Below, piece after piece: positions 380 through 31,948 of a stretch of DNA of 39,611 bases. Numbering within the stretch: the first letter of the stretch is position 1; each line of letters opens with the position of its first letter. The translations under genes and the position numbers were made by a program. This stretch comes from Acinetobacter phage vB_Aba_01KA: sequence record PV615262.1; one strand, given 5' to 3'. The notes beneath the pieces are model-generated. The model was not told the DNA's origin and did no database searches. It worked only from the letters and a program-made list of their open reading frames with translations.

Positions 380-3300
380 ATGGCGACTCGTGGTATTCGC
401 AATAACAATCCGGGCAACATCCGGGTAAGTAAGGACCAATGGGAAGGAATGACTGGAGATGATGGCGCATTCGTCACCTTCGATAGTCCAGAGTCTGGCG
501 TCCGAGCTTTGGGTAAAAACCTGCTGTCTTACGGTCGCCAAGGTTACGACTCCATCGAGAAGATTATCAACCGATGGGCACCTCCTAATGAGAACGAAAC
601 TAAGGCTTATATTGACTCAGTGGTGGCTGCAACTGGTATTCCAGCTACCCAGAGTCTAGACCTATCGAACCCGGACACCCTGTCTGCTCTGGCGCAAGCT
701 ATTAGCTTCCATGAGACAGGCTCCCGGTACAATCCTGAAGTCTATCAGAAGGGAGTCGAAAGAGCACTTAATGGCATTAGCCCAAAGACTCCACCAGTAA
801 GCGCTAACGTATTTGACGCACTCACGGAAGGACTCAAGGCTAAACCTAAAGTAGCTCTGGGTGAGAACCTTCCGACCGCTGCTGGTCTAAACATTGAGGG
901 TCAAGCACCAGAAGCTCCCAACGAATCGTTTGGTGAGATGTTCTATAAGTCTACTGGCGAGACCATGCAGGAACGAGAGGAGCGCTCTACGTGGTTCGGT
1001 TTCGGCTCGGCTACAGAAGCTGAAGTGAAGAACTCTATGGTCGGCGTGGCTATCCGCGCTGGTCAGACAGAGGACTCACTTGATGTCATTGGCGATGTGT
1101 TCAACCCTACCCGCTGGAACAACCATAAGTGGTCTCGTGAGGAGCTGGACCAGATTCGTAACGCTGGAGTTCTCCCTCAGTATTACGGTGTCATTACTGG
1201 TGGCTCTCCTCAGAACCTGACCGAGCTTATTAACTTGGCTCTTGAGAACCAGAAGTTGGACCAAGAGAAGGCCAAGGCGGGGACTGGTGCTCAGTTAGCA
1301 GCTGGTGTGATTGGTGCTGGTGTAGACCCGCTGACCTACGTTCCTATCGCTGGACAGGTTGGCAAAGGTGCGAAGCTGGTCAACAAGATGTTCACCGTGG
1401 CTGCTCAATCTGGAGCACTTGCTGGTGTATCAGAGATGGCCCGTACCTCAGTGGCTGGTGGTGATGCTCATGTGGCTGAAGCTATCCTTGGTGGTGCTCT
1501 CTTTGGTGGTGGTATGACTGCCCTCGCTGATGGGTTAGGCAGAGCCTTAGGTCGCAACACTAATGAGTTTGCTGGCCCAGCTACACGTCTGGAAGCTCGT
1601 GAGACCGCTCGTAACGTTGATGGTCAGGACCTGTCTCGTCTTCCTATTCAGGAAGGTGAGCAGACCTTTAGTCATCAAGGCGTTAAGTTCGCTGACGTTC
1701 CTAATGAGCCGGGAAGTGTACGATTAGAAGATGGTTCAATCCTGATTGGTGAGAACCCTCTGAACCCTAAGACACGTCAAGTCTTCGACGAAGTGATTGA
1801 GCCAGAACGTGCCGCTGCTGGTGTGAACCTTGGTGGACTTACCGAGATTGGTCTGAAGCTGCTTCGGTCTGAGAACCCTGAGATTCGTGGAGTAGCTGCT
1901 GACTTAGTACGTTCACCTACTGGTATGCAGTCTGGGGCCTCAGGTAAAATGGGACAACTGCGTCAGACGTGTTCGAGAGGCTTCGTGCTGTGGACCATCG
2001 GTTCTACAACGACATCGACGATGCGGTTACTGAGGCACTAAAGGACCCGTACTTCCAGACAGCATTCTGGCGAGACTCTGGAGCATTCCGTCAGGACATC
2101 TACCAGCGCGTGTCTATGGCTATCGAAGATGGCAGCGGAAACCTGAAGGCTGAACTGACTCCGGGAGAACTTAAAGTCTATGACCTACTGAAGAACCAGT
2201 TTGACGCCAAGCGTGAAATGATGGAGAACCCAGCTATGTTTGGTCGGCCAGACGCTCAGTCTGTCTTTCCGGGTAGCCGCTTCAAGGGAACCTACGTCCC
2301 TCATGTGTATAGCAAACAGATGAAGGAGCTGTACACCAAGGAGCTTGGGAGTCCAGAGGCGTTGCAGGAGGCCATCAAGAAGTCATGGTTGACCAGCTAT
2401 GCGTCTCGCCCTGAAGTCAAGAAACGCGTGGACGAGGCACTCTTAGAGTCTGACCCTACGTTGACTCCAGAAGGACTTGCGGCTGCGGTCGATAAGTACG
2501 CCAACGATAAGGCTTACGGTATCTCCCACACCGAGCAGTTCGAACGTTCATCCGTAATGGAAGAGAACATCAACGGTCTGGTTGGTCTGGAGAACAACAG
2601 CTTCCTTGAGGCTCGTAACCTGTTCGATAGCGATATGTCAATCGTCCTACCTAACGGTCAGACCTTCAGTGTCAACAACCTGCGTGAGTGGGACATGGAC
2701 AAGATTGTCCCGGCCTACAACCGTCGAGTTAATGGCGATATTGCTATCATGGCTGGTACAGGCAAGACAACGAAAGAAATGAAGGACTTGGTTGAGACCA
2801 TGATGAACAAGGCTGGTGATGACGGAAAGTTGAAAGGTGAAGTATCTACCTTGCGTGACACACTGAAGATTCTAACTGGTCGTTCTCGACGTGATGGGGC
2901 TGACGATGCAGCCTTCGCTGCCGTGATGCGCACAATGACAGACCTATCGTTCTTCGCTAAGAATGCCTATATGGGTGTTCAGAACTTAACGGAGATTGGT
3001 GGTATGCTGGCCCGTGGTAACGTTCGTGCAATGCTTCATGGAGTCCCAATTTTCCGTGACCTAGCCTTCCGTAACAAGAAGGTAGGGGCCTCAGAGATTA
3101 AGGACCTGCACAATGTTATCTTCGGTAAGGAACTGGATGACTCAATCCGTCCGTCTAAACAGGATGTCATTGACCGTCTGCGATCTTACAGTGACCTCGG
3201 TCGTGGTACAGCTACAGCTCTGGGGACTGCCAAGTATTACACTGGCGAACTTGCAGTACGCTCTCCGTTCACTAAAGTCCTCAACGGTACTACCAACTAC

Positions 3301-4265
3301 CTGTTAGATGCTGGACGTCAAGGCTTCCTGTCTGACATCGTGGAGCATAGCCTGACTGGTAGTAAGCGTAAGTTCGATGACCGCTGGCTGAAGACCGCTG
3401 GTATCTCTGACGAGCAGTGGAAGGGCATTAAGTCCCTAATCCGTGAGTCAGTGACTCGTGGTCCAGACGGGAAGTATACCATCAAGGATAAGAAGGCGTT
3501 CAGTCAGGACCCAAGGGCTATGGACCTGTGGCGTATGGGAGATACCATCGCTGACGAAACGTTACTCCGGCCCCACAAGCTGTCCAACATGGACGCCAAG
3601 GCTTATGGTCCTCTCGCTAAGACTGTCCTTCAGTTTAAGAACTTCGTCATCAAGTCCATCAATGGTCGAACCATGCGAACCTTCTATAACGCCACGAAGA
3701 ACAACCGAGCGATGGATGCTGCCTTGTCCACTGTGATGTCTATGGGTCTGGCTGGTATCTACTACATGGCTCAGGCTCACGTCAAGGCTTACGCTATGCA
3801 GGATGGTAGAGACCGTGATTACCTCAAGCAAGCTCTTGACCCGACGATGATTGGATATGCAGCTCTATCACGTAGTTCACATCTGGGTGGTCCACTTGGG
3901 TAGCTAACATTCTGGGTGGCATCGCTGGGTATGAGGACACTAAGATGCTCCGTTCGTCTATCCTACCTCGTTCGCCTACAGAGAAGCCTGAACGTGCCAT
4001 CGCGTATGGTGCAGCTACAAGTGACCCTGTGATGAATGTTGTTGGTAACTTCTTGGAGCAGGTTCCAGCTTTCGGATATGCTGCTAACGTTGGCGCTTCG
4101 GCTTACAACTTGGCTGGCTACCTCAAGGCTGATACTCGTGTCAACGAGCGTGACTACATGACCGGGATGTATAATACGTTCCGTGAACTGGTTCCGAACG
4201 ACCCAATTACCCAGAAGCTGTTGCTTGGAACGTTTGAGGAGCAAGGTATCCACATCAAGGACTAA
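380..4265 (+). CDS. internal virion protein gp16 (core/ejection protein), interrupted by two apparent single-base frameshifts
   Basis: Three colinear ORF pieces (380-2041, 1969-3903, 3945-4265) match T7 gp16 from about residue 150 to the C-terminus (GTYVPHVY, SFLEARNLFDSD, TGKTTKE, ELVPNDP). They join if one G is restored in the GGG run near 1950 and one base near 3900-3945. RBS AAGGAG precedes ATG 380. The N-terminal ~130 aa are not T7-like. Confidence 0.85.
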
Positions 4266-4329: not shown

Positions 4330-7300
4330 ATGTCCACGATTACACAATTCCCTTCAGGAAACACTCAGTACAGGATTGAGTTCGACTACCTAGCCAGAAC
4401 GTTTATTGTTGTTACGCTGGTGAATAGCTCTAACCCTACCCTGAACCGTGTACTGGAAGTTGGTCGAGATTATCGATTCCTTAATCCAACGATGATTGAG
4501 ATGTTGGTTGACCAATCAGGTTTCGACATCGTTCGTATTCACCGTCAGACTGGAACTGACTTAGTGGTAGACTTCAGGAATGGCTCGGTGTTGACGGCTA
4601 GTGACCTGACCAATTCAGAGCTTCAGGCTATCCATATTGCAGAAGAAGGTCGAGACCAAACGGTTGACTTAGCGAAGGAATATGCCGATGCTGCTGGTAG
4701 CTCTGCTGGCAACGCTAAGGATAGCGAGGACGAAGCACGACGAATCGCTGAGAGTATCAGGGAAGCTGGTCTAATTGGCTATATCACCCGTCGCTCCTTC
4801 GAGAAAGGCTACAACGTTACAACATGGAGCGAGGTCCTGCTATGGGAAGAGGATGGTGATTATTACCGCTGGGATGGTACGCTTCCAAAGAACGTTCCTG
4901 CTGGTTCAACTCCTGAAACTTCCGGTGGGATTGGATTAGGTGCGTGGGTTAGTGTTGGTGATGCTGCTTTAAGAAGTCAGATTTCAAATCCTGAAGGGGC
5001 AATACTCTACCCTGAATTACATAGAGCACGCTGGCTTGATGAAAAAGATGTTCGTGGTTGGGGTGCTAAAGGGGATGGTGTCACTGATGATACAGCAGCG
5101 TTAACGAGCGCATTAAACGACATACCGGTTGGACAAAAGATTAATGGCAATGGGAAGACATATAAGGTCACATCCCTGCCTGATATTAGTCGCTTCATCA
5201 ACACTCGTTTCGTTTATGAGCGCATTCCCGGACAACCTCTTTATTATGCCTCTGAAGAATTTGTTCAGGGTGAGTTGTTCAAAATAACGGACACCCCTTA
5301 TTACAATGCGTGGCCTCAGGATAAAGCGTTCGTATATGAGAATGTGATATATGCACCTTACATGGGTAGTGATCGTCATGGCGTTAGTCGTCTGCATGTA
5401 TCATGGGTTAAGTCTGGTGATGATGGTCAAACATGGTCTACTCCAGAGTGGTTAACTGATCTGCATCCAGATTACCCTACAGTGAACTATCATTGTATGA
5501 GTATGGGTGTATGTCGCAACCGTCTGTTTGCCATGATTGAAACACGTACTTTAGCCAAGAACGAATTAACCAATTGTGCATTGTGGGATCGCCCCATGTC
5601 TCGTAGCCTGCATCTTACTGGTGGTATCACTAAAGCTGCAAATCAGCGATATGCAACAATACATGTACCAGACCACGGACTATTCGTGGGTGATTTTGTT
5701 AACTTCTCTAATTCTTCGGTAACAGGTGTATCCGGTGATATGACTGTTGCAACCGTAATAGATAAGGACAACTTCACGGTTCTTACACCCAACCAGCAGA
5801 CTTCAGATTCGAATAACGCTGGAAAGAATTGGCACATGGGTACTTCTTTCCATAAGTCTCCATGGCGTAAGACAGACCTTGGTCTAATCCCTCGTGTCAC
5901 AGAGGTGCATAGCTTTGCTACTATTGATAACAACGGCTTTGTTATGGGCTATCATCAAGGCGATGTAGCTCCACGCGAAGTTGGGCTTTTCTACTTCCCT
6001 GATGCTTTCAATAGCCCATCTAGTTATGTTCGTCGTCAGATACCATCTGAGTATGAACCAGATGCGTCAGAGCCGTGCATCAAGTACTATGACGGTGTAT
6101 TATACCTTATCACTCGTGGCACTCGTGGGGATAGACTAGGTAGCTCTTTGCATCGTAGTAGAGACATAGGTCAGACTTGGGAGTCACTGAGATTTCCACA
6201 TAATGTTCATCATACTACATTACCTTTTGCTAAAGTAGGGGATGACCTTATTATGTTTGGTTCAGAACGTGCAGAAAATGAATGGGAAGCAGGTGCACCA
6301 GATGATCGTTACAAGGCATCTTACCCTCGCACCTTCTATGCACGCTTGAATGTAAACAATTGGAATGCAGATGATATTGAATGGGTTAACATCACTGACC
6401 AGATTTATCAGGGCGGAATAGTTAACTCAGGTGTAGGTGTTGGTTCGGTAGTTGTGAAGGATAATTACATCTACTACATATTTGGTGGAGAGGACCATTT
6501 TAACCCATGGACATATGGAGATAACTCAGCGAAGGATCCCTTCAAATCGGATGGTCATCCCTCAGATTTGTATTGCTACAAAATGAAGATTGGCCAAAGC
6601 AATCATGTTTCCCGTGACTTCAGGTATGGTGCTGTACCTAACAGAGCTGTTCCGTGTTTTTTGATACGAATGGGATTCGCACTGTTCCTGCGCCAATGGA
6701 ATTTACAGGGGATTTGGGTTTAGGTCATGTGACCCTTAGAGCCAGCACCAGTAGTAACATTCGCTCTGAAGTTTTAATGGAAGGTGAATATGGGTTTATC
6801 GGGAAGTCTATACCGACTGATAACCCGGCAGGGCAGCGCATCATATTTTGCGGGTGAAGGCACCAGTTCAACGACTGGCGCACAGATTACGCTTTATGGT
6901 GCAAATAACACCGACTCAAGGCGAATAGTTTACAATGGTGCTGAGCATCTGTTCCAGAATGCTGACGTTAAGCCTTATCTCGATAACGTGATTGCGCTTG
7001 GTGGGCCAAGCAACCGATTCACTACTGCATACCTTGGAAGCAACCCTATTGTTACTTCTAATGGGGAGAGGAAAACAGAGCCGGTAGTTTTTGATGATGC
7101 TTTCCTAGATGCCTGGGGTGACGTTCACTACATCATGTATCAATGGTTAGATGCTGTTCAACTGAAAGGCAATGATGCTCGTATTCACTTCGGGGTTATT
7201 GCTCAGCAAATTCGTGATGTATTCATTGCACACGGTCTGATGGATGAAAACAGTACGAATTGTCGTTATGCCGTTCTGTGTTATGACAAGTATCCACGGA

Positions 7301-10477: not shown

Positions 10478-10515
10478 ACTACCAGTCTAACCTACTGTTT
10501 TACAAGGAGTTTGGA

Positions 10516-10538
10516 CTTAACTATCACTATAGGGAAGA
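10516..10538 (+). promoter_or_regulatory. phage RNA polymerase promoter (phiOR-equivalent near the right genome end)
   Basis: CTTAACTATCACTATAGGGAAGA, consensus match; located after gene 19 as phiOR is in T7. Confidence 0.75.
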
Positions 10539-10875: not shown

Positions 10876-11315
10876 CGCAATCATGGTAACGATTCATGAG
10901 CGGAAGACCTAAGGTCAGTACGTGGATAAAGACCCACTCTACTGACCTTAGCTACTGTAGTCAAGGACTTTAGGTAACACCTTAATAGAAGCTCACTTAG
11001 GGTCATCCTACTTATTGGTCTATCCTAGTGTCGCCTGACCTACGGTCCTTGACCTACAGTGGCTGTGGCCTACAGTAGTGACGATGAGTTTTGGACCAAA
11101 AGTTTGAGACCACATCTCACAGTTCAAGAACCTCAAGTCTCCCCCATAGGCCCTCTTTAAGTCCAGACCAAAGGCCCTACCCTTGGACCGATGGTCAAGA
11201 CTTCAGGTCAACGATAGGTCTAGGCTATGGCTTAGGGTGGAGACGATAGGTAGAGGCTATAGGTCTTCTTTGAGTCTCTATCTGTATAGTGTTATAGTAT
11301 AACATTACGTCCTAC

Positions 11316-11651: not shown

Positions 11652-11681
11652 TTGACAGGCAGTAACGACTTAAAGTAATAT
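11652..11681 (+). promoter_or_regulatory. host sigma70 early promoter (A2/A3-like)
   Basis: -35 TTGACA at 11652-11657, 18-nt spacer, -10 TAATAT at 11676-11681, followed by GTACCACAT as in T7 A3; upstream GGTTAAGTAGACAGCCTGATAAGTC is near-identical to the T7 early promoter region as I recall it. Confidence 0.55.
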
Positions 11682-13721: not shown

Positions 13722-13771
13722 CTTGGCGAACGTCTGGGATATAGCAACACTTGGGAGCAAACTGTAATGAA
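13722..13771 (+). repeat. direct repeat copy 2
   Basis: CTTGGCGAACGTCTGGGATATAGCAACACTTGGGAGCAAACTGTAATGAA; here non-coding but still encodes the relic peptide LANVWDIATLGSKL-stop followed by the ATG of ORF 13767. Confidence 0.8.
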
Positions 13772-14027
13772 AACCGTATACATTAACAAACCATCTATCC
13801 GTAGCCGTGTAGAGCAAATACAGCGTGACGAGTTCTTACATCGCCGCATGAAGGCTGAGGGCCATGAGTCCGAACTGATGTGTCTGGCGTATGGTGGACG
13901 ACCGATCACTGACGATGGTAAACTTCTAGTCTCAGGCTGGAAGGCGATGGACCAACGGTCAACCATCAAGCACACGACCAATGGTGACTTCAGCCATCTC
14001 CACGCTAACCAACTGATATGCAAGTGA
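13767..14027 (+). CDS. hypothetical early protein (86 aa)
   Basis: ORF starting at the ATG in repeat copy 2; no recognisable motif. Confidence 0.45.
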   Translation: MKTVYINKPSIRSRVEQIQRDEFLHRRMKAEGHESELMCLAYGGRPITDDGKLLVSGWKAMDQRSTIKHTTNGDFSHLHANQLICK

Positions 14028-14033
14028 TTATGA

Positions 14034-14056
14034 CTTAACTATCACTATAGGACTAA
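14034..14056 (+). promoter_or_regulatory. phage RNA polymerase promoter immediately upstream of the RNA polymerase gene
   Basis: CTTAACTATCACTATAGGACTAA, full consensus; +1 G about 14050, 75 nt upstream of the gene 1 ATG; leader contains a direct repeat AAGTGAAAGAC at 14071-14081 and 14095-14105. Confidence 0.7.
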
Positions 14057-14124
14057 AGGTCTAAGACTACAAGTGAAAGACCAAAGAGACTCTAAGTGAA
14101 AGACTAATAACAAGGACTTTAAGT

Positions 14125-16804
14125 ATGAGCGTCATCTCTATTGACAAACACGACTTCTCTGATGTGTCGAACGCCATTGAGCCGTTTAACCTGCTGGCTG
14201 ACCACTACGGGCAAGACCTTGCAGTCAAACAGCTTCAGCTTGAGCATGAGGCATACACTGAAGGCGAGCGACGTTTCATCAAAAACCTTGAGCGCCAGAC
14301 TGAGCGCGGGGAACTGGCAGACAATCAGGTCGCCAAGCCTTTGATGCAGACTCTGGTTCCTAAGATTGCGCAAGCCGTCAGGGAGTGGCATGAAGGTCCA
14401 GACGGGAAGCTGTCAACCTCTCGTCCTAGCGTAGCGTTCACCATGTTAAGCACCGAAGAGAAGGCCGTCAAGGACCGCTCTCTGCGTATCTCTTGCGAGT
14501 CTGCTGCGGTCATCATACTGAAGGTCATACTCTCCAAGCTGGTAAAGCCTGAAGGGATACCGATTACACCGATGGCCTCCGCGATAGGTCGCACACTTGA
14601 GGACGAAATCCGCTTCGGTCGCATCCGTGACAAGGAGAAGGAGCACTTCAAGAAGGCGATAGCTGAGAACTTGAACAAGCGAGCTGGGGCATCCTACAAG
14701 AAAGCCTACATGCAAGCGGTCGAGACATCCATGCTGGAGCAAGGCCAACTGGAAGATGCGTGGGGACTTGGAGTCCTACAGAGGCTGTCCACGTGGGCAT
14801 CAAGATGCTGGAGATTGTCATCCAGTCAACACAACTGGTCGAGCTTAAGCGGTACGGTGCTGGCAATGCAGCGGCTGACGTAGAGATGGTCCACCTGTCA
14901 GACTTCTGGGTCAAGAAGATGGCACAACGAGGATTCAGCCTTGCGGGTATCGCTCCAGTCTACCAGCCTTGCGTCGTTCCACCTAAGCAGTGGACTGGTG
15001 TCGTAGGTGGTGGGTACTGGGCCAAAGGTCGCAGACCGTTACCATTGATTCGCTTAGGGTCTAAATCAGCGGTGGCACGTTATGAAGACGTATACATGCC
15101 TGAAGTCTATGAAGCTGTGAATATCATCCAGAATACACCTTGGAAAGTGAACAAGAAGGTACTGGACGTGGTGAACATGGTCGAGAAGCTGAACAACACG
15201 CCTATTGATGACATCCCTCAGATGGAGCCACTGAAGCCTGAAGACTATGCGGGTGAGACCGAGGAGGAACTAAAGGCATGGAAGAAGCTGCTGCTGGTAT
15301 CTATCGCCGCGAGAAGGCCAGACAGTCACGCAGATTATCACTGAGCTTTATCGTCAACCAAGCGAATAAGTTCTCTCAGTTCAAGGCCATCTGGTTTCCA
15401 TACAACATGGACTGGCGCGGTCGAGTCTACGCTGTGCCGATGTTCAACCCACAGGGTAACGACATGCAGAAGGGTCTCCTGACTCTGGCAGTCGGTAAGC
15501 CTATTGGTGCTGACGGTTTCAAATGGCTGAAGGTCCATGGAGCAAACTGCGCGGGTGTCGATAAAGTCACCTTTGATGAGCGCATCAAGTGGGTGGAAGA
15601 CAACCACGACAACATTATGGCTGCTGCTAAGGCACCGATGGATAGCATTGAGTGGTGGGGCAAGTTCAGACTCTCCGTTCTGCTTCCTTGCGTTCTGCTT
15701 CGAGTATGCTGGTGTAATGCACCACGGATTGTCTTACTCCTGCTCACTGCCGATAGCGTTCGATGGGTCATGCTCAGGGATTCAGCACTTTAGCGCGATG
15801 CTTCGTGATCACGTCGGTGGACATGCAGTAAACCTAACGCCTTCCGGTAAGGTCCAAGACATCTACCGAATCGTTTCCGACCGCATTGAGGAAGAGCTTA
15901 AAGTCCTGCTGGTTAACGGCACGGACAACGAGATGGTAACTCACGAGGACAAGAAACTGGTGAGATTACCGAACGCCTCAAGCTGGGGACACGAGAGCTG
16001 GCCCGGCAGTGGCTGACTTACGGTATGTCACGCAAGGTCACTAAGCGTTCAGTAATGACTCTGGCCTATGGGTCGAAAGAGTACGGCTTCGCAGACCAAG
16101 TTTATGAGGACATCGTGATGCCAGCGATTGACTCAGGGTCTGGCGCTATGTTCACCGAGCCAAGCCAAGCGTCTCGCTTCATGGCTAAGATGATTTGGGA
16201 AGCTGTGAGCGTGACCGTAGTTGCTGCGGTTGACGCGATGAAGTGGCTTCAGGGTGCTGCCAAGCTGCTGGCTGCTGAAGTGAAGGACAAGAAGACTGGA
16301 GAAATCCTGAAGCCTTGCCTTCCGGTACACTGGGTAACACCTGATGGTTTCCCGGTATGGCAGGAATACCGCAAGAAGGATACCACTCGTCTGAACCTGA
16401 TGTTCTTAGGGTCATTCAACCTTCAGCCTACGGTCAACAAAGGCATGAAGAAAGAGCTGGACAAGCACAAGCAGGAGTCAGGCATTAGCCCGAACTTCGT
16501 CCACTCACAAGATGGTAGCCACCTACGCAAGACTGTAGTACACACGCATCGCAAGTATGGCGTGATGTCATTCGCAGTGATTCACGATAGCTTCGGGACC
16601 ATCCCTGCTGACGCTGAGTATCTGTTCCGTGGCGTCCGTGAGACGATGGTCGAGACCTACCGCGACAACGATGTGCTGCTTGACTTCTACGAGCAGTTCG
16701 AATGCCAGCTTCACGAGAGTCAGCGCGACAAGTTGCCTGAGCTTCCGAAGAAAGGTAAACTGAATATCGAAGACATCTTGTCTTCAGACTTTGCATTCGC
16801 TTAA
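14125..16804 (+). CDS. T7-type single-subunit DNA-directed RNA polymerase (gene 1), interrupted by about four single-base indels
   Basis: Five colinear pieces (14125-14883, 14760-15344, 15278-15793, 15537-16016, 16025-16804) match T7 RNAP throughout (FNLLADHYG, ARFGRIRD, PCVVPPK, AIWFPYNMDWRGRVYAV, DGSCSGIQHFSAM, HDSFGT, ends SDFAFA). Shifts near 14767 (G run), 15287 (A run), 15665 and 15955 (A run). Confidence 0.9.
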
Positions 16805-17350: not shown

Positions 17351-17373
17351 CCTAAACTATCACTATAGGATTA
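17351..17373 (+). promoter_or_regulatory. phage RNA polymerase promoter (phi1.1-equivalent)
   Basis: CCTAAACTATCACTATAGGATTA, consensus match. Confidence 0.8.
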
Positions 17374-17425
17374 GACTCAAGGTCATGACTAAAAGTCGTG
17401 GCCTTCATGATTAACCCTAACTAAT
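17371..17425 (+). promoter_or_regulatory. conserved RNA hairpin, probable RNase III site (R1.1-like)
   Basis: TTAGACTCAAGGTCATGAC-TAAAA-GTCGTGGCCTTCATGATTAA; stem with two G-U wobbles at the same positions as the 8116 and 24121 copies. Confidence 0.5.
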
Positions 17426-17443
17426 TCAATCAGGAGCTACACC

Positions 17444-18981: not shown

Positions 18982-19015
18982 AACCCAGTGGTCTTAGGAC
19001 TGCTGGGTTTCTTTG
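18982..19015 (+). terminator. intrinsic terminator after the ligase gene (TE-like early terminator)
   Basis: ACCCAG-TGGTCTTAGGACTG-CTGGGT stem-loop followed by TTTCTTTGCTTG. Confidence 0.6.
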
Positions 19016-19798: not shown

Positions 19799-19876
19799 CT
19801 GGTGCTTTAGACAGTGGGTCTCAACCGGGAATGTGGACTACCTGTCCATGTACCATATGTGGAAGGAGAAAGGGCT

Positions 19877-20035
19877 ATGAGCCTTGAAGAAAAGAAATAC
19901 ATCGTGGAGCTTGAGGGTCGCGTTCAGTCCTTCGAGGTTCCGGTGTACGCAAAGTCTCTTGAAGAGGCTACCCTGAAGTCCCAAGAGTATGAGGACGCTG
20001 GTTTTGTGGTCGGACGGATTCGTCCTGAGACCTAA
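19877..20035 (+). CDS. Gp2, inhibitor of host RNA polymerase (52 aa from ATG 19877)
   Basis: [14 protein letters not shown]...[10 protein letters not shown] matches T7 Gp2 (SFEVPIYAETLDEA...AGFEVTRVRP); RBS GGAAGGAGAAAGGG before ATG 19877; the track ORF 19814 is probably an over-extension. Confidence 0.75.
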
Positions 20036-21243: not shown

Positions 21244-21467
21244 TGACTCAAGAAGTTAAGGTCATTCGTCAGCGTCTGACCATTGATAAAATCCCAGTAG
21301 GCTATGCGTTTATCATCCATGGTAAGCCGGGTGAAGTGTACGTGAAGATTAGTAACTCTCACGTCTTCAACCATAAGTTGCTCCAGATGCACACCACGGA
21401 TGCTAACCGTTTCCAACGTCATCTGAACCTCGTAGCTGTAGAGCTGGTGGTGTATGATGGTGAGTAA
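21240..21467 (+). CDS. hypothetical protein (75 aa) between genes 3 and 3.5
   Basis: ORF with overlapping start (ATGA); no T7 counterpart at this position that I recall. Confidence 0.45.
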   Translation: MMTQEVKVIRQRLTIDKIPVGYAFIIHGKPGEVYVKISNSHVFNHKLLQMHTTDANRFQRHLNLVAVELVVYDGE

Positions 21468-21915
21468 GGTTCAGTTCAACCCACGGTCCCGTACTGACGC
21501 TATCTTCGTTCACTGTTCGGCTACCAAGCCAGAGATGGACATCGGGGTAGAGACCATCCGTATGTGGCACAAGCAGCAGGGCTGGCTGGACGTAGGCTAC
21601 CACTTTATCATCAAGCGTGATGGCACTGTGGAAGAGGGTCGCCCGGTCAATGTCGTAGGGTCACACGTTAAGGACTGGAACTCACGGTCTGTAGGCGTAT
21701 GCCTTGTAGGTGGAATTGACGCTAAGGGTCAGTTTGAAGCTAACTTCACTCCAGCCCAGATGAACTCCCTGCGCAACAAGCTGGCTGACCTGAAGGTCAT
21801 GTATCCTCAGGCAGAAATCAAAGCACACCATGACATAGCACCTAAGGCGTGTCCAAGTTTTGACTTGCAACGATGGCTGTCTACCAATGAACTGGTCACT
21901 TCCGACCGTGGATAA
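21454..21915 (+). CDS. lysozyme / N-acetylmuramoyl-L-alanine amidase (gp3.5), also the predicted RNAP inhibitor
   Basis: DAIFVHCSATKP, WLDVGYHFIIKRDGTVEEGR, SIGVCLVGGID, FTPAQM, AHHD.APKACPSFDL, ends ELVTSDRG as in T7 lysozyme. Confidence 0.9.
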   Translation: MMVSKVQFNPRSRTDAIFVHCSATKPEMDIGVETIRMWHKQQGWLDVGYHFIIKRDGTVEEGRPVNVVGSHVKDWNSRSVGVCLVGGIDAKGQFEANFTPAQMNSLRNKLADLKVMYPQAEIKAHHDIAPKACPSFDLQRWLSTNELVTSDRG

Positions 21916-21939: not shown

Positions 21940-22154
21940 ATGATTAAACTTATCGAATTTCTTGGTCGTCTGGTGGTGCGTGGTTATCGTCGTGCTGCGG
22001 TACTGGAACGAAAGGTAGAAAGAAGACTGCGGACGGTGCGGCTAATGCTGCTGCTCTGGCTGACAAGCTGACCATCGCGTCACTGGAAGCTGGCATGAAG
22101 GCTCGTCAGGCTGATACCAAAGCTGACCAGTTGGCTCAGTTCTTCAAAGCCTAA
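21940..22154 (+). CDS. hypothetical small protein, probably about 70 aa with one frameshift
   Basis: ATG 21940 after AAGGGAGA; frame A gives 43 aa; the -1 frame continues without stop to TAA 22152-22154 (...AANAAALADKLTIASLEAGMKARQADTKADQLAQFFKA). Confidence 0.35.
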
Positions 22155-22172
22155 ACTATCACCTTAGGGATG
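22150..22172 (+). promoter_or_regulatory. phage promoter variant (CACCTTAGGGA core)
   Basis: CCTAAACTATCACCTTAGGGATG; two core mismatches, likely a weak promoter ahead of gene 4. Confidence 0.45.
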
Positions 22173-22222: not shown

Positions 22223-23921
<1,699 letters not shown>

Positions 23922-24120: not shown

Positions 24121-24165
24121 TCTAGACTCAAGGTCATTCACAGCGAGTGGCCTTTATGATTAGAC
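24121..24165 (+). promoter_or_regulatory. conserved RNA hairpin, probable RNase III site (R4.7-like)
   Basis: TCTAGACTCAAGGTCATTC-ACAGC-GAGTGGCCTTTATGATTAGAC; third copy of the box, with compensatory stem changes. Confidence 0.5.
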
Positions 24166-24182
24166 TAAACGGAGGATTAACC

Positions 24183-26353
24183 ATGTTTGACCTTAAGAGT
24201 ATCTGGGGTTCTGACATCGAGACCAACGGTCTCCTTGACACCGTGTCCCAGTTCCACTGTGGGGTCCTGATTAACGCCGAGTCGAATGAGACCCTTAAGT
24301 ACGGGGTAGCTCCGATGGTCGGTATCGTCGGTGGCTTCAAAGAGTATGTGCATAAAGTGGAAGAGATTGCCGCATCACCTGATGGTATGCTGGTATTCCA
24401 TAACGGTATCAACTATGACGTCCCGGCTATAGACAAGCTGAAGCGTTTGTACTTTGGGAAACGCTTTAACTTCCCGAAACATAAGATGATTGATACCTTG
24501 GTGCTGGGACGCTTGATGTATCCAAACATTAAGTTCTCAGACATGGGCGCAGTGAAAGCTGGTCGTCTGCCGCCTAAGATGATGGGACGCCAGTCTCTTG
24601 AGGCTTGGGGCTATCGTCTCGGTGAGATGAAGGGTGAGTACAAACACGATTACGTTGCCAAATGCAAGGCTGAGGGTATCGAATATAAGGCTGGGGACGA
24701 ATGGTTGTTCCCGTCTCAGGAGATGCTGGACTATAACGTTCAAGACGTTGTGGTCACACTGGCGTTGTTCAAGAAGTTCCTGACTGACAAGTATTACTTC
24801 CAGTCTGAACAGTTCGCTTTCGACCAGATTTATGCGTTGCGTCTTGAACATGATGCTGCGTGGACCTGTGCGAAGATGGAACGTAACGGCTATCCGATGA
24901 ACACCGAGATGGTCGAAGGCTTATACCGTGAACTCACCGTCAAACGTGCAGAGCTACTGGACAAGCTGCGTTCGACTTTTGGTAGCTGGTATGCACCGAA
25001 GGGAGGCAAGGAGTTCTTCAAGCACCCACGGACAGGTAAGGACCTTCCTAAGTATCCTAGAGTCGTGTATCCCAAGGTCGGTGGAATCTTTAAGAAGCCG
25101 AAGAACAAAGCTCAACGCTTAGGTCTTGAACCCTGTGAACGCGATACGCGAGACACGATGGAGGGAGCACCATTCACGCCAATCACTTACGTTGAGTTTA
25201 ATCCGGAAGCGGAGACCACTTAGCGAAAGTTCTGATTGAGCGTGGCTGGGAGCCTGTGGACTTCACTGACACAGGGAAACCTGTAGTCGATGACGAGACG
25301 TTAGAACACGTTAAGTTACCAGACGAAGAGGCTCAGGCTTGCGTAGAGCTTGTCCGTGAGTATCTGGTAGTCCAGAAGCGCATCGGTCAGGCTGCTGAAG
25401 GTAAGAACGCATGGTTGAAACTTGTAGGTCCAGACGGACGTATGCACGGTTCAATCAACCCATGCGGTGCAGTAACCGGACGTGCGACTCACAGTTCACC
25501 AAACATGGCTCAAGTCCCAGCTAACGGTGCTCCATACGGTGAGACTTGCCGTGGTGCTTTCGGTGCAGCTTGGAACAAGACGGATGGTAAGCCAGACCCT
25601 TGGATTCAAGTTGGTGTGGATGCTTCAGGTCTTGAGCTTCGTTGTCTGGGGAACCGAGCGGCTCCGTTTGATGGTGGCGACTATGCGAAGACTGTGGTCG
25701 AAGGTGACATCCACTGGGCCAACGCAGTAAACGCTGGGTTAGCACCTAACGTCCCACGCGATAAGTCTAACCACGACCATGAGGCTTTCCGTAACAACGC
25801 TAAGACGTTCATCTATGCGTTCCTGTATGGTGCAGGAGCCGCTAAGATTGGACTGATAGTCGGCGGTGGTAAGAAGGAAGGTTCAGCTCTCATGAAGAAA
25901 TTCATTGAGGGTACACCAGCCATCAAGGACCTCAGGGAAGCTGTGAGTAGTACGTTAATATCAGACTCTAAGTGGGTGGATGGAGAGAACATCGTTAAGT
26001 GGAAACGCCGTTGGCTGCGTGGACTTGATGGTCGCCGTATCCACATCCGGTCGCCACACTCAGCACTTAACGCTCTACTTCAGGGTGATGGTGCGGTTGT
26101 CTGTAAGCACTGGATTGTCGAGACCGAACGTATGCTGGAAGCCGAAGGATACGTCCACGGCTGGGATGGAGACTTTGCGTACATGGCATGGGTGCACGAT
26201 GAGCTACAAATTGCGTGTAAAAACAATGACATAGCTGAACGTGTTGTACAGATTGCTCAACTAGCTATGCGTAAGGTTGGCGAGTTCTATAACTTTAAAT
26301 GTGTCCTTGATACCGAAGGTAAGATTGGACCAACGTGGAAGGAGTGTCACTAA
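24183..26353 (+). CDS. DNA polymerase (gene 5, family A), one apparent frameshift near 25200-25230
   Basis: 3'-5' exonuclease motif DIETNG, HNGINYDVPA, LEAWGYRLGEMKG, YNVQDVVVT, then polymerase motifs (RATHSSPNMAQVP, GVDASGLELRCL, NAKTFIYAFLYGAG, HAWVHDE) colinear with T7 gp5. Start taken at ATG 24183 (RBS GGAGG). Confidence 0.9.
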
Positions 26354-28048: not shown

Positions 28049-28071
28049 ACTAAACTATCACTATAGGGACT
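28049..28071 (+). promoter_or_regulatory. phage RNA polymerase promoter (phi6.5-equivalent)
   Basis: CACTAAACTATCACTATAGGGACTT. Confidence 0.8.
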
Positions 28072-28132
28072 TTAGGACCTAAGATATGACTATAAGATAG
28101 ACTTTAGTCTTAACTTAAAGAGGAGATTCAAG

Positions 28133-31925: not shown

Positions 31926-31948
31926 ACTAAACTATCACTATAGGGAGA
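31926..31948 (+). promoter_or_regulatory. phage RNA polymerase promoter (phi10-equivalent, closest to full T7-like core)
   Basis: CTAAACTATCACTATAGGGAGACC. Confidence 0.85.

Follow-up and report, generated by a model that had tools for sequence, protein, structure and literature searches.

Homologues of the site described here are already annotated as promoters in EcoDS1 (EU734172; promoter at 2244-2266, gene 1 at 2336), CR44b (HG818823; promoter at 1814-1836, gene 1 at 1906) and the Citrobacter phage CR8 of the genus Caroctavirus (HG818824; promoter at 3356-3378, gene 1 at 3460); the GenBank records of K1F contain no promoter features. In the Pseudomonas phage gh-1 (NC_004665), the promoter phi1 (939-961) lies directly before the polymerase gene, which begins at 1058. 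It is a consensus phage promoter that follows the host promoters and precedes gene 1 by about 100 nt, its sequence matches that of gh-1 phi4, and it is kept in five relatives. In another Pseudomonas phage, LUZ100, phi1 is situated directly upstream of the polymerase gene, and a transcriptomic study of this phage reported it as phage-specific and proposed a positive feedback loop (PMC10134795). The phage-specific promoter phi-A8 of the Vibrio phage phiA318 lies upstream of the kinase and polymerase genes and was read as a means of autoregulation or self-amplification (PMC4099482). In engineered T7 genomes, displacing gene 1 has given rise to 'auto-expression feedback loops' (PMC3737178).

Here we analysed a stretch of 39,611 nt (PV615262.1, Acinetobacter phage vB_Aba_01KA), hereafter the window, which is a circularly permuted coliphage genome of the Kayfunavirus type, similar to K1F and EcoDS1. 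A 3.8-kb query around the promoter site retrieved 398 phage records, with Escherichia phage vB_Eco_1RS (PV615263.1) as the top match at 99.8%; many Kayfunavirus genomes, among them K1F, EcoDS1 and LM33_P1, come next at 93-97%. Position 1 of both K1F and EcoDS1, the left end of the genome, corresponds to position 11115 of the window; in canonical coordinates, this puts the promoter site where the early region ends, some 2.9 kb in from the left end. We consider it likely that this promoter, the leftmost one for the phage's own polymerase in a K1F-like genome and placed directly before gene 1, makes polymerase synthesis self-sustaining once the host enzyme has primed it. The promoter itself is already known. 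It is an ordinary, annotated and standard feature of K1F-like phages, which on its own matters little, and its value is comparative.

A phage promoter directly before gene 1

The promoter lies in the 97-nt spacer between the stop codon of gene 0.38 (14027) and the ATG of gene 1 (14125), and is thus intergenic. The features of this segment are as follows.

13767-14027, + strand: upstream early gene, gp0.38 homologue, with its stop codon 6 nt before the promoter
14033-14055, + strand: phage RNA polymerase promoter, -17 to +6, ACTTAACTATCACTATAGGACTA, with a class II-like GGA start
14050, + strand: predicted transcription start, +1 G, from alignment of the CACTATAGG core with T7-group promoters (CACTATA ends at -1)
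14112-14116, + strand: Shine-Dalgarno sequence AAGGA, 8 nt before the ATG, within the block AGGACTTTAAGTATG
14125-16804, + strand: gene 1, single-subunit RNA polymerase, in five reading frames in this assembly

Reading from the stop codon TGA (14025-14027), the sequence continues through ttatg into ACTTAACTATCACTATA and then GGACTA. This site is one of a family of copies that all point the same way. The 13-mer TATCACTATAGGA, with at most 2 mismatches allowed, has 12 matches in the window, all on the + strand, against 0.78 expected, and none of 100 shuffles reached 12. Searching with the 15-mer AACTATCACTATAGG yielded 11 credible promoters, again all on the same strand.

4278, 10532, 14050, 17368, 19072, 20048, 22167 (weak), 28066, 30908, 31943 and 36616, + strand: +1 positions of the promoters found in the 15-mer search

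A search for repeated 18-mers, made without a preset motif, also recovered the 14050 site. From -13 to +2 its sequence is identical to the consensus, and the minority T that it has at -14 is also present in the sites at 10532 and 36616, so its earlier description as a full-consensus phage promoter 75 nt before gene 1 is essentially right. The GGA start resembles those of the early and middle promoters at 17368, 19072 and 20048, and is unlike the start at 31943, GGGAGA, in what is presumably the capsid promoter. A block of about 23 bp, a CACTATAGG core, multiple copies and a single direction are the attributes of a T7-group (Studiervirinae) promoter, and all are present here, together with an intergenic place and a leader that ends in a ribosome-binding site. 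A terminator scan revealed no terminator-like site between the promoter and gene 1. The locus therefore has the layout of an autogenous loop, in which a cognate promoter points into the polymerase gene and no terminator intervenes.

The start of gene 1 at 14125 agrees, by alignment, with the annotated starts in EcoDS1, K1F and CR44b, and the block AGGACTTTAAGTATG is identical to the ribosome-binding site of T7 gene 1.1. Further into the gene, alignment to K1F and EcoDS1, both of which have an intact gene 1 of 893 aa, located single-base homopolymer indels near 14765, 15286, 15665 and 15953. PV615263.1 shares these errors and has three further ones; its gene 1 is divided in the annotation among six CDS, of which one is labelled hypothetical. 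We rejected the idea of a truly split or pseudogenised polymerase, because the length differences fall at or beside short homopolymers; the frameshifts are sequencing or assembly artefacts, and they leave the promoter and the start of gene 1 unaffected.

Conservation and co-variation with polymerase specificity

Across the Kayfunavirus-like metagenomic loci in IMG/VR that include upstream sequence, every case (20 of 20) has a phage promoter whose +1, counted from the ATG of gene 1, falls at -75 to -81, and the same holds for K1F and EcoDS1. A 116-nt query spanning the promoter, the leader and the start of gene 1 matched 219 GenBank phage records at a coverage of at least 80%, 180 of them with at least 90% identity. 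The sequence-only reading of this locus, made before our analysis, had named a comparison with related phages as a check, and had said that an arrangement standard in all close relatives would count against it; the same layout, including the repeat in the leader, is indeed standard in all of them. Constraint on the site is evident in 16 sequences of the K1F subclade, in which only 1 of 23 promoter columns varies. The leader (5 of 69 columns varying) is itself more conserved than the adjoining coding sequence (14 of 77 and 19 of 150).

The promoter also follows the polymerase when specificity changes. In the GW1-like lineage of Kayfunavirus (L018 and L037), every promoter, including that of gene 1, reads AAACCCTCACTATAGG, with the specificity form AACCCTCACTATAGG; the specificity region from -12 to -8 is CTATC in K1F-type phages and CCCTC at all GW1-like promoters. 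The specificity loop of the polymerase differs in parallel, being TRLNLMFLGSFNLQPT in the K1F type and TRLDLMFLGTFRLQPT in the GW1-like lineage. The latter loop is T3-like, with D as in T3 and R as in both T7 and T3 at the aligned positions. A further promoter and loop pair is found in CR8, in which all promoters, again including that of gene 1, read AAGGAAGGTACACTATAGG and have the specificity form GGTACACTATAGG. The specificity region thus matches the phage's own polymerase loop across the K1F-type, GW1-like and CR8 lineages. A T7 polymerase engineered to carry the K1F specificity loop is active in E. coli with the cognate K1F promoter (PMC4299498). Because the promoter before gene 1 is rewritten whenever the specificity of the polymerase changes, the site appears to be in use. 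Taken together, its ubiquity, constraint and co-variation make the promoter at 14033-14055 look functional.

An A-rich leader with a direct repeat

Between the predicted start and the ATG lies a leader with an unusual composition.

14050-14124, + strand: gene 1 5' leader, 75 nt, 45% A, 36% GC, unstructured
14064-14084, + strand: direct repeat copy 1, AGACTACAAGTGAAAGACCAA, exact core 14071-14081
14087-14107, + strand: direct repeat copy 2, AGACTCTAAGTGAAAGACTAA, exact core 14094-14104

The leader is the most A-rich 70-nt stretch in the whole genome and belongs to the lowest 0.3% of 70-nt windows by GC (0.36, compared with 0.50 for the genome). It showed no sign of a stable fold, with z = -0.13 alone, -0.32 with 16 nt of gene 1 and -1.36 in a 196-nt context, and a search of the leader against Rfam gave no match. 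We looked in it for a counterpart of the RNase III site R1, a stable AAGGUCA...UGGCCUU-type hairpin some 50 nt long, and rejected this, given that the leader folds like its shuffles; the RNase III-type hairpins that served as fold controls gave z = -2.15 (T7 R1), -3.62 (T7 R1.1) and -3.98 (the leader at 17368 in the window).

The 11-nt direct repeat AAGTGAAAGAC that had been noticed in the leader is exact in both copies. The first was correctly placed at 14071-14081; the second is at 14094-14104, rather than at 14095-14105 as first given. These copies are the cores of a 21-nt imperfect repeat with a spacing of 23, whose two copies are 86% identical. An exact repeat of at least 11 nt within the 75 nt arose in 0.54% of 5000 dinucleotide-preserving shuffles of the leader. 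The duplication with its 23-nt period is most simply a local tandem duplication inside a selected, unstructured and A-rich leader. The conservation of the leader is not accounted for by the feedback model set out below.

The early transcription unit around gene 1

Gene 1 sits in an early unit that begins near the left end and is delimited by the following features.

11652-11681, + strand: best sigma-70-like host promoter candidate in the left-end region, 10/12 match
17351-17373, + strand: next phage promoter downstream, +1 at 17368, followed by a leader with an RNase III-type hairpin
18982-19009, + strand: hairpin and T-run after the ligase gene, equivalent of the early terminator (TE), closing the early unit that contains gene 1

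Sigma-70-like sites are present at 11270 and 11652, in a scan that returned 11 sites overall when 9.4 were expected by chance, and EcoDS1 has three annotated host promoters in the homologous left-end region. The candidate at 11652 and other equivalents of A1-A3 are presumably the source of the first polymerase mRNA. The + strand near 14000-14124 yielded no sigma-70 promoter comparable to T7 promoter C. From the left end (11115) up to 14033 there is no phage promoter, and the terminator scan gave no terminator-like site between the left-end region and gene 1. The hairpin and T-run at 18982-19009 are the first strong ones met from the left end. Downstream of this unit lie genes for a gp2-like inhibitor of host polymerase (19814-20035) and for a gp3.5-like amidase or lysozyme (21454-21915); a gp0.7 kinase was not found among the genes of the genome. 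The lysozyme of T7 directs the polymerase away from promoters of class II (PMC6938266).

A proposed self-amplifying polymerase gene

We propose that gene 1 is switched on by the host and then drives itself. Host RNA polymerase would start at the left-end sigma-70 promoters and transcribe the early region through gene 1 to the terminator at about 19.0 kb. Given the candidate host promoters at the left end and the lack of a terminator-like site before gene 1, the first gene 1 mRNA would come from the host enzyme, and this early transcript would yield the first polymerase molecules. The new polymerase would then recognise ACTTAACTATCACTATA followed by GG at 14033-14055 and start at G14050, making a gene 1 mRNA whose leader of 75 nt is A-rich, unstructured and equipped with a good ribosome-binding site, and would read on into genes 1.1-1.3. 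From this point polymerase synthesis would be self-sustaining and the host enzyme no longer needed, its activity presumably blocked by the gp2 homologue. The loop itself is probably held in check by the homologue of the gp3.5 lysozyme, an enzyme known from T7 to damp promoters of the class II type.

With a real phage-type promoter in the right orientation and no terminator in between, the polymerase can be expected to transcribe its own gene. The self-transcription and positive feedback suggested by the sequence-only reading would thus be a natural topological consequence of a conserved, co-varying and correctly oriented promoter. The strength of such a loop is a separate matter. T7-like phages have phiOL and yet are treated as driven by host promoters for gene 1, so an upstream promoter alone is no proof of a significant loop. 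Moreover, as the leader is devoid of a stabilising hairpin at its 5' end, the gene 1 mRNA could be short-lived.

Alternative roles for the promoter and its leader

The promoter might mainly, or also, be of the replication type, a Kayfunavirus counterpart of T7 phiOL or phi1.1B whose transcript primes DNA synthesis, with transcription of gene 1 as a by-product or a second function. We regard this as possible but unlikely. Every T7 origin needs a T7 promoter, with replication initiating at phi1.1A/phi1.1B and several promoters able to act as secondary origins (PMC8373140), and the primary origin of T3 is annotated just downstream of phi1.05. The leaders of T7-group promoters are of two types, those with an RNase III hairpin and those that are AT-rich with CTTAAAG or CTTTAAG words; low GC and repeated words of this kind characterise the leaders of T7 phiOL and phi1.1B, T3 phiOL and phi1.05, and gh-1 phi1. 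Kayfunaviruses have neither phiOL nor an AT-rich second promoter right after gene 1, where the leader at 17368 forms an RNase III-type hairpin, and the gene 1 leader is the only early-region leader in the window that leans towards the AT-rich type. It supplies the AT-rich segment that follows the promoter in a T7-type origin, ranks among the most AT-rich windows and as the most A-rich of all, contains 4 AAAG words compared with 0-1 in the window's other leaders, and is conserved above its coding flanks. These likenesses, however, are ones of composition and of short words. The GC of 0.36 falls between that of origin-type leaders (0.25-0.33) and that of most others (0.39-0.50), the leader of the promoter at 28066 is even more AT-rich, and efficient translation would explain an A-rich, unstructured leader equally well. 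Aligned to origin leaders, the gene 1 leader gave P = 0.11 for phiOL and P = 0.42 for T3 phi1.05, and its alignment to the leader of T7 phi1.1B is significant only through the shared ribosome-binding block AGGACTTTAAGT(ATG), which contains a common word; GACTTTAAG is a common word in the window genome. We therefore did not take the resemblance to the T7 and T3 origin leaders as a sign of homology, the matches being the ribosome-binding block and common short words. A more far-reaching version, which we think quite improbable, is a dual module that replaces phiOL in the K1F, CR8 and gh-1 lineages and unites a self-amplifying promoter with a left-end, possibly primary, replication origin, AAAGAC- and CTTAAAG-type words being the shared signature of T7-group 'replication promoters'.

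The repeat raises the question of a regulator. Two copies of AAGTGAAAGAC could be paired sites, in RNA or DNA, for a factor that tunes polymerase expression, for example as a translational or transcriptional brake. A chance repeat is unlikely (P about 0.005), the leader is conserved, words of the AAAGAC type occur at least twice in the gene 1 leaders of the L011 group, the GW1 group and CR8, and a pair of ATCTTAAAGAC in gh-1 has an equal spacing of 23 nt. Both the spacing and the sequence of the copies nevertheless vary, from 23 in K1F-like phages to 26 in the L011 group, 15 in CR8 and units of 11-12 nt in the relatives of gh-1, and this variation weakens the equal spacing in gh-1 and the window as evidence for a paired operator. 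In GW1-like leaders the two copies have not changed in concert, the first having diverged from the second; AAGAC is commoner than expected throughout the genome (97 compared with 39), and no candidate binding protein was identified. We accordingly see paired regulatory sites as very unlikely. That the promoter-like sequence is not used at all, as a chance match or a relic, is exceedingly improbable. Neither transcript mapping nor in vitro transcription for a Kayfunavirus was found in the accessible literature, which would leave room for an idle site, but the site agrees exactly with the consensus from -13 to +2, less than 1 match is expected per genome, it is invariant genus-wide while nearby bases vary, and it has been rewritten to a new specificity in the GW1-like and CR8 lineages.

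Comparison with known systems

The sequence-only reading had set this locus against T7, in which gene 1 was said to be served by host promoters, with the first phage promoters downstream of it. The host promoter C does lie directly before gene 1 in T7, but a phage promoter, phiOL, lies upstream of the gene; the true contrast lies in where the leftmost phage promoter is placed and how good it is, rather than in whether there is one. In both T7 (at 405) and T3 (at 366-388), phiOL is the leftmost phage promoter and, as in the window, it has the same orientation and an AT-rich leader with (C)TTAAAG words. It stands 2.6-2.8 kb upstream of gene 1, however, before A1-A3 and thus upstream of the host promoters and the whole early region, whereas the promoter in the window adjoins gene 1. 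T7 phiOL departs from the T7 consensus at two positions and has been described as a weak promoter (PMC6938266). Kayfunaviruses do without phiOL, and have a consensus promoter adjoining gene 1 in the place taken in T7 and T3 by the minor host promoter C and the RNase III site R1. In 50 of the 55 T7-, T3- and K11-like metagenomic loci that could be scanned, the phage's own promoter is found over 700 nt upstream of gene 1, mostly about 2.2-3 kb away, and a copy within 700 nt was seen only in L038, at about -617. As these phages have an upstream phage promoter, their polymerases would also reach gene 1. In SP6 we found no consensus promoter adjoining the polymerase gene, the nearest candidate having 5 mismatches and lying at -1271.

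The closest counterparts are EcoDS1 and CR44b, in which the +1 is also 75 nt before the ATG and the same promoter precedes the same repeat-bearing leader; the window differs from them only at +6 and at a few bases of the leader. CR8 has a promoter of the same position class with its own specificity and a different leader, of 63-87 nt depending on the choice of ATG. The leader in gh-1 likewise contains an 11-nt direct repeat ending in AAAGAC, ATCTTAAAGAC, twice and 23 nt apart, at +25/+48 compared with +22/+45 in the window. By contrast, gh-1 belongs to a different genus, its promoter sequence is different, no early genes separate its host promoters from gene 1, and the repeats in gh-1 and its relatives belong to an array of 11-12-nt CTTAAAG units. 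Around phi1, the gh-1 record also lists a minor terminator and an RNase III site. LUZ100 and phiA318 are distant Autographiviridae, and nothing in the window compares with the mechanism proposed for LUZ100, in which a terminator and a MarR-like repressor gate the loop in a setting that is temperate-like.

The leftmost promoter of these phages thus has two placements, a distal phiOL before the host promoters (T7, T3 and K11-like phages) and a consensus promoter adjoining gene 1 (K1F-like phages, CR8 and gh-1). This natural variation bears on polymerase dosage and on the switch from early to middle expression, which have so far been explored only with engineered T7 genomes (ectopic gene 1 and autogenes). 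Within a single genus, a promoter that co-varies with a switch in polymerase specificity is a clean natural case of promoter-polymerase co-evolution, and the arrangement amounts to a natural 'autogene' cassette, ready-made for K1F-type orthogonal polymerases in synthetic biology. T7 strains with an ectopic gene 1 were reportedly made by Endy et al. in 2000 and by Springman et al. in 2005. The T7 autogene and the ectopic gene 1 place the polymerase gene behind its own promoter, as here, but they are artificial constructs, whereas the Kayfunavirus layout is natural, genus-wide and combined with priming by host promoters from the left end.

Phage promoters relative to the genome ends

Position 1 of the reference Kayfunavirus genomes K1F and EcoDS1, which is the canonical left end, maps to window 11115, so the record is a circular permutation. 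Because the left end lies there, the promoter at 10515-10537 (+1 at 10532) is a phiOR-like, right-end promoter. T7, T3 and K11-like phages have a phiOL-type promoter (in T7 and T3 the leftmost phage promoter, upstream of the host promoters and gene 1), whereas the window has no such phage promoter between 11115 and 14033, where the promoter of gene 1 (RNA polymerase) begins. In a T3-like IMG/VR contig (L038), consensus T3-type promoters precede gene 1 by 1569 nt (+1 at 1432) and 617 nt (+1 at 2384), so the T7/T3 clade also includes intermediate positions for upstream phage promoters.

Two further matches to the promoter were found in the window:

22150-22172, +1 at 22167: weak promoter-like site AAACTATCACCTTAGGG, two mismatches, upstream of the ORF beginning at 22223
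5481-5503, +1 at 5498: promoter-like match, three mismatches, within a long ORF

The three-mismatch match is unlikely to be a promoter. No other 70-nt stretch of the genome is as AT-rich as 28052-28121 (30% GC), which comprises the promoter with +1 at 28066 and its leader, which holds a second, degenerate promoter-like copy, TATGACTATAAGA, at 28085-28097. By its position after the exonuclease gene, the 28066 promoter may be the equivalent of phi6.5, which in T7 is a secondary origin.

Reading-frame interruptions

Gene 1 (14125-16804) is spread over five reading frames in the window, whereas it is intact in K1F and EcoDS1. Relative to these references, single-base indels occur near 14765, 15286, 15665 and 15953, at or adjoining short homopolymer runs. 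PV615263.1, the nearest GenBank record, shares these indels and has three further ones, and its annotation divides gene 1 into six CDS fragments, including one called hypothetical. In both records the gene 1 indels almost certainly arose as errors of sequencing or assembly. Other long genes are likewise split into two or three consecutive ORFs in differing frames:

22223-23921: probably primase/helicase
24147-26353: probably DNA polymerase
380-3903: probably internal core proteins

These split ORFs suggest that the indel problem of gene 1 is present throughout the window assembly.

Leader elements

At the next promoter downstream of that of gene 1, the leader (17368-17430) forms a hairpin, AAGGUCAUGACU...GUCGUGGCCUU, that is strong (-19 kcal/mol, z = -3.98). 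This hairpin shares its type with the T7 RNase III processing site R1.1 and is therefore probably the R1.1 equivalent.

The sequence AGGACTTTAAGTATG at the gene 1 start (14114-14127) is identical in T7 at 5993-6009, where, downstream of phi1.1B, it forms the ribosome-binding site of gene 1.1 together with the start of that gene. With four occurrences in the window against 0.34 expected, GACTTTAAG looks like a word common to this phage group.

The gene 1 leader of gh-1 contains ATCTTAAAGAC twice (980-990 and 1003-1013), 23 nt apart; the 11-nt direct repeat in the window's gene 1 leader has the same spacing and lies at nearly the same distance from +1. Relatives of gh-1 (L091-L096) carry CTTAAAG words as an array of two to three units with an 11-12-nt period, and three ACTTAAAG words occur in the T7 phiOL leader, as they do in K11-like post-gene-1 leaders. 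According to the phiA318 paper (PMC4099482), the polymerase gene of gh-1 has no phage promoter upstream of it, but in the gh-1 GenBank record phi1 is annotated at 939-961, directly before gene 1. The phi1 sequence matches that of gh-1 phi4.

A change of promoter specificity within the genus

In the GW1-like Kayfunavirus lineage (L018, L037), the promoter specificity has changed from AACTATCACTATAGG to the T3-like AACCCTCACTATAGG:

L018, 2926: GW1-like promoter
L018, 6429: GW1-like promoter
L018, 8282: GW1-like promoter

The AT-rich recognition loop of the GW1-like polymerase differs too, and at aligned positions its specificity loop carries an N-to-D change, as in T3, and an N-to-R change, as in both T7 and T3. 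This switch is a natural event of promoter-polymerase co-evolution within one genus.
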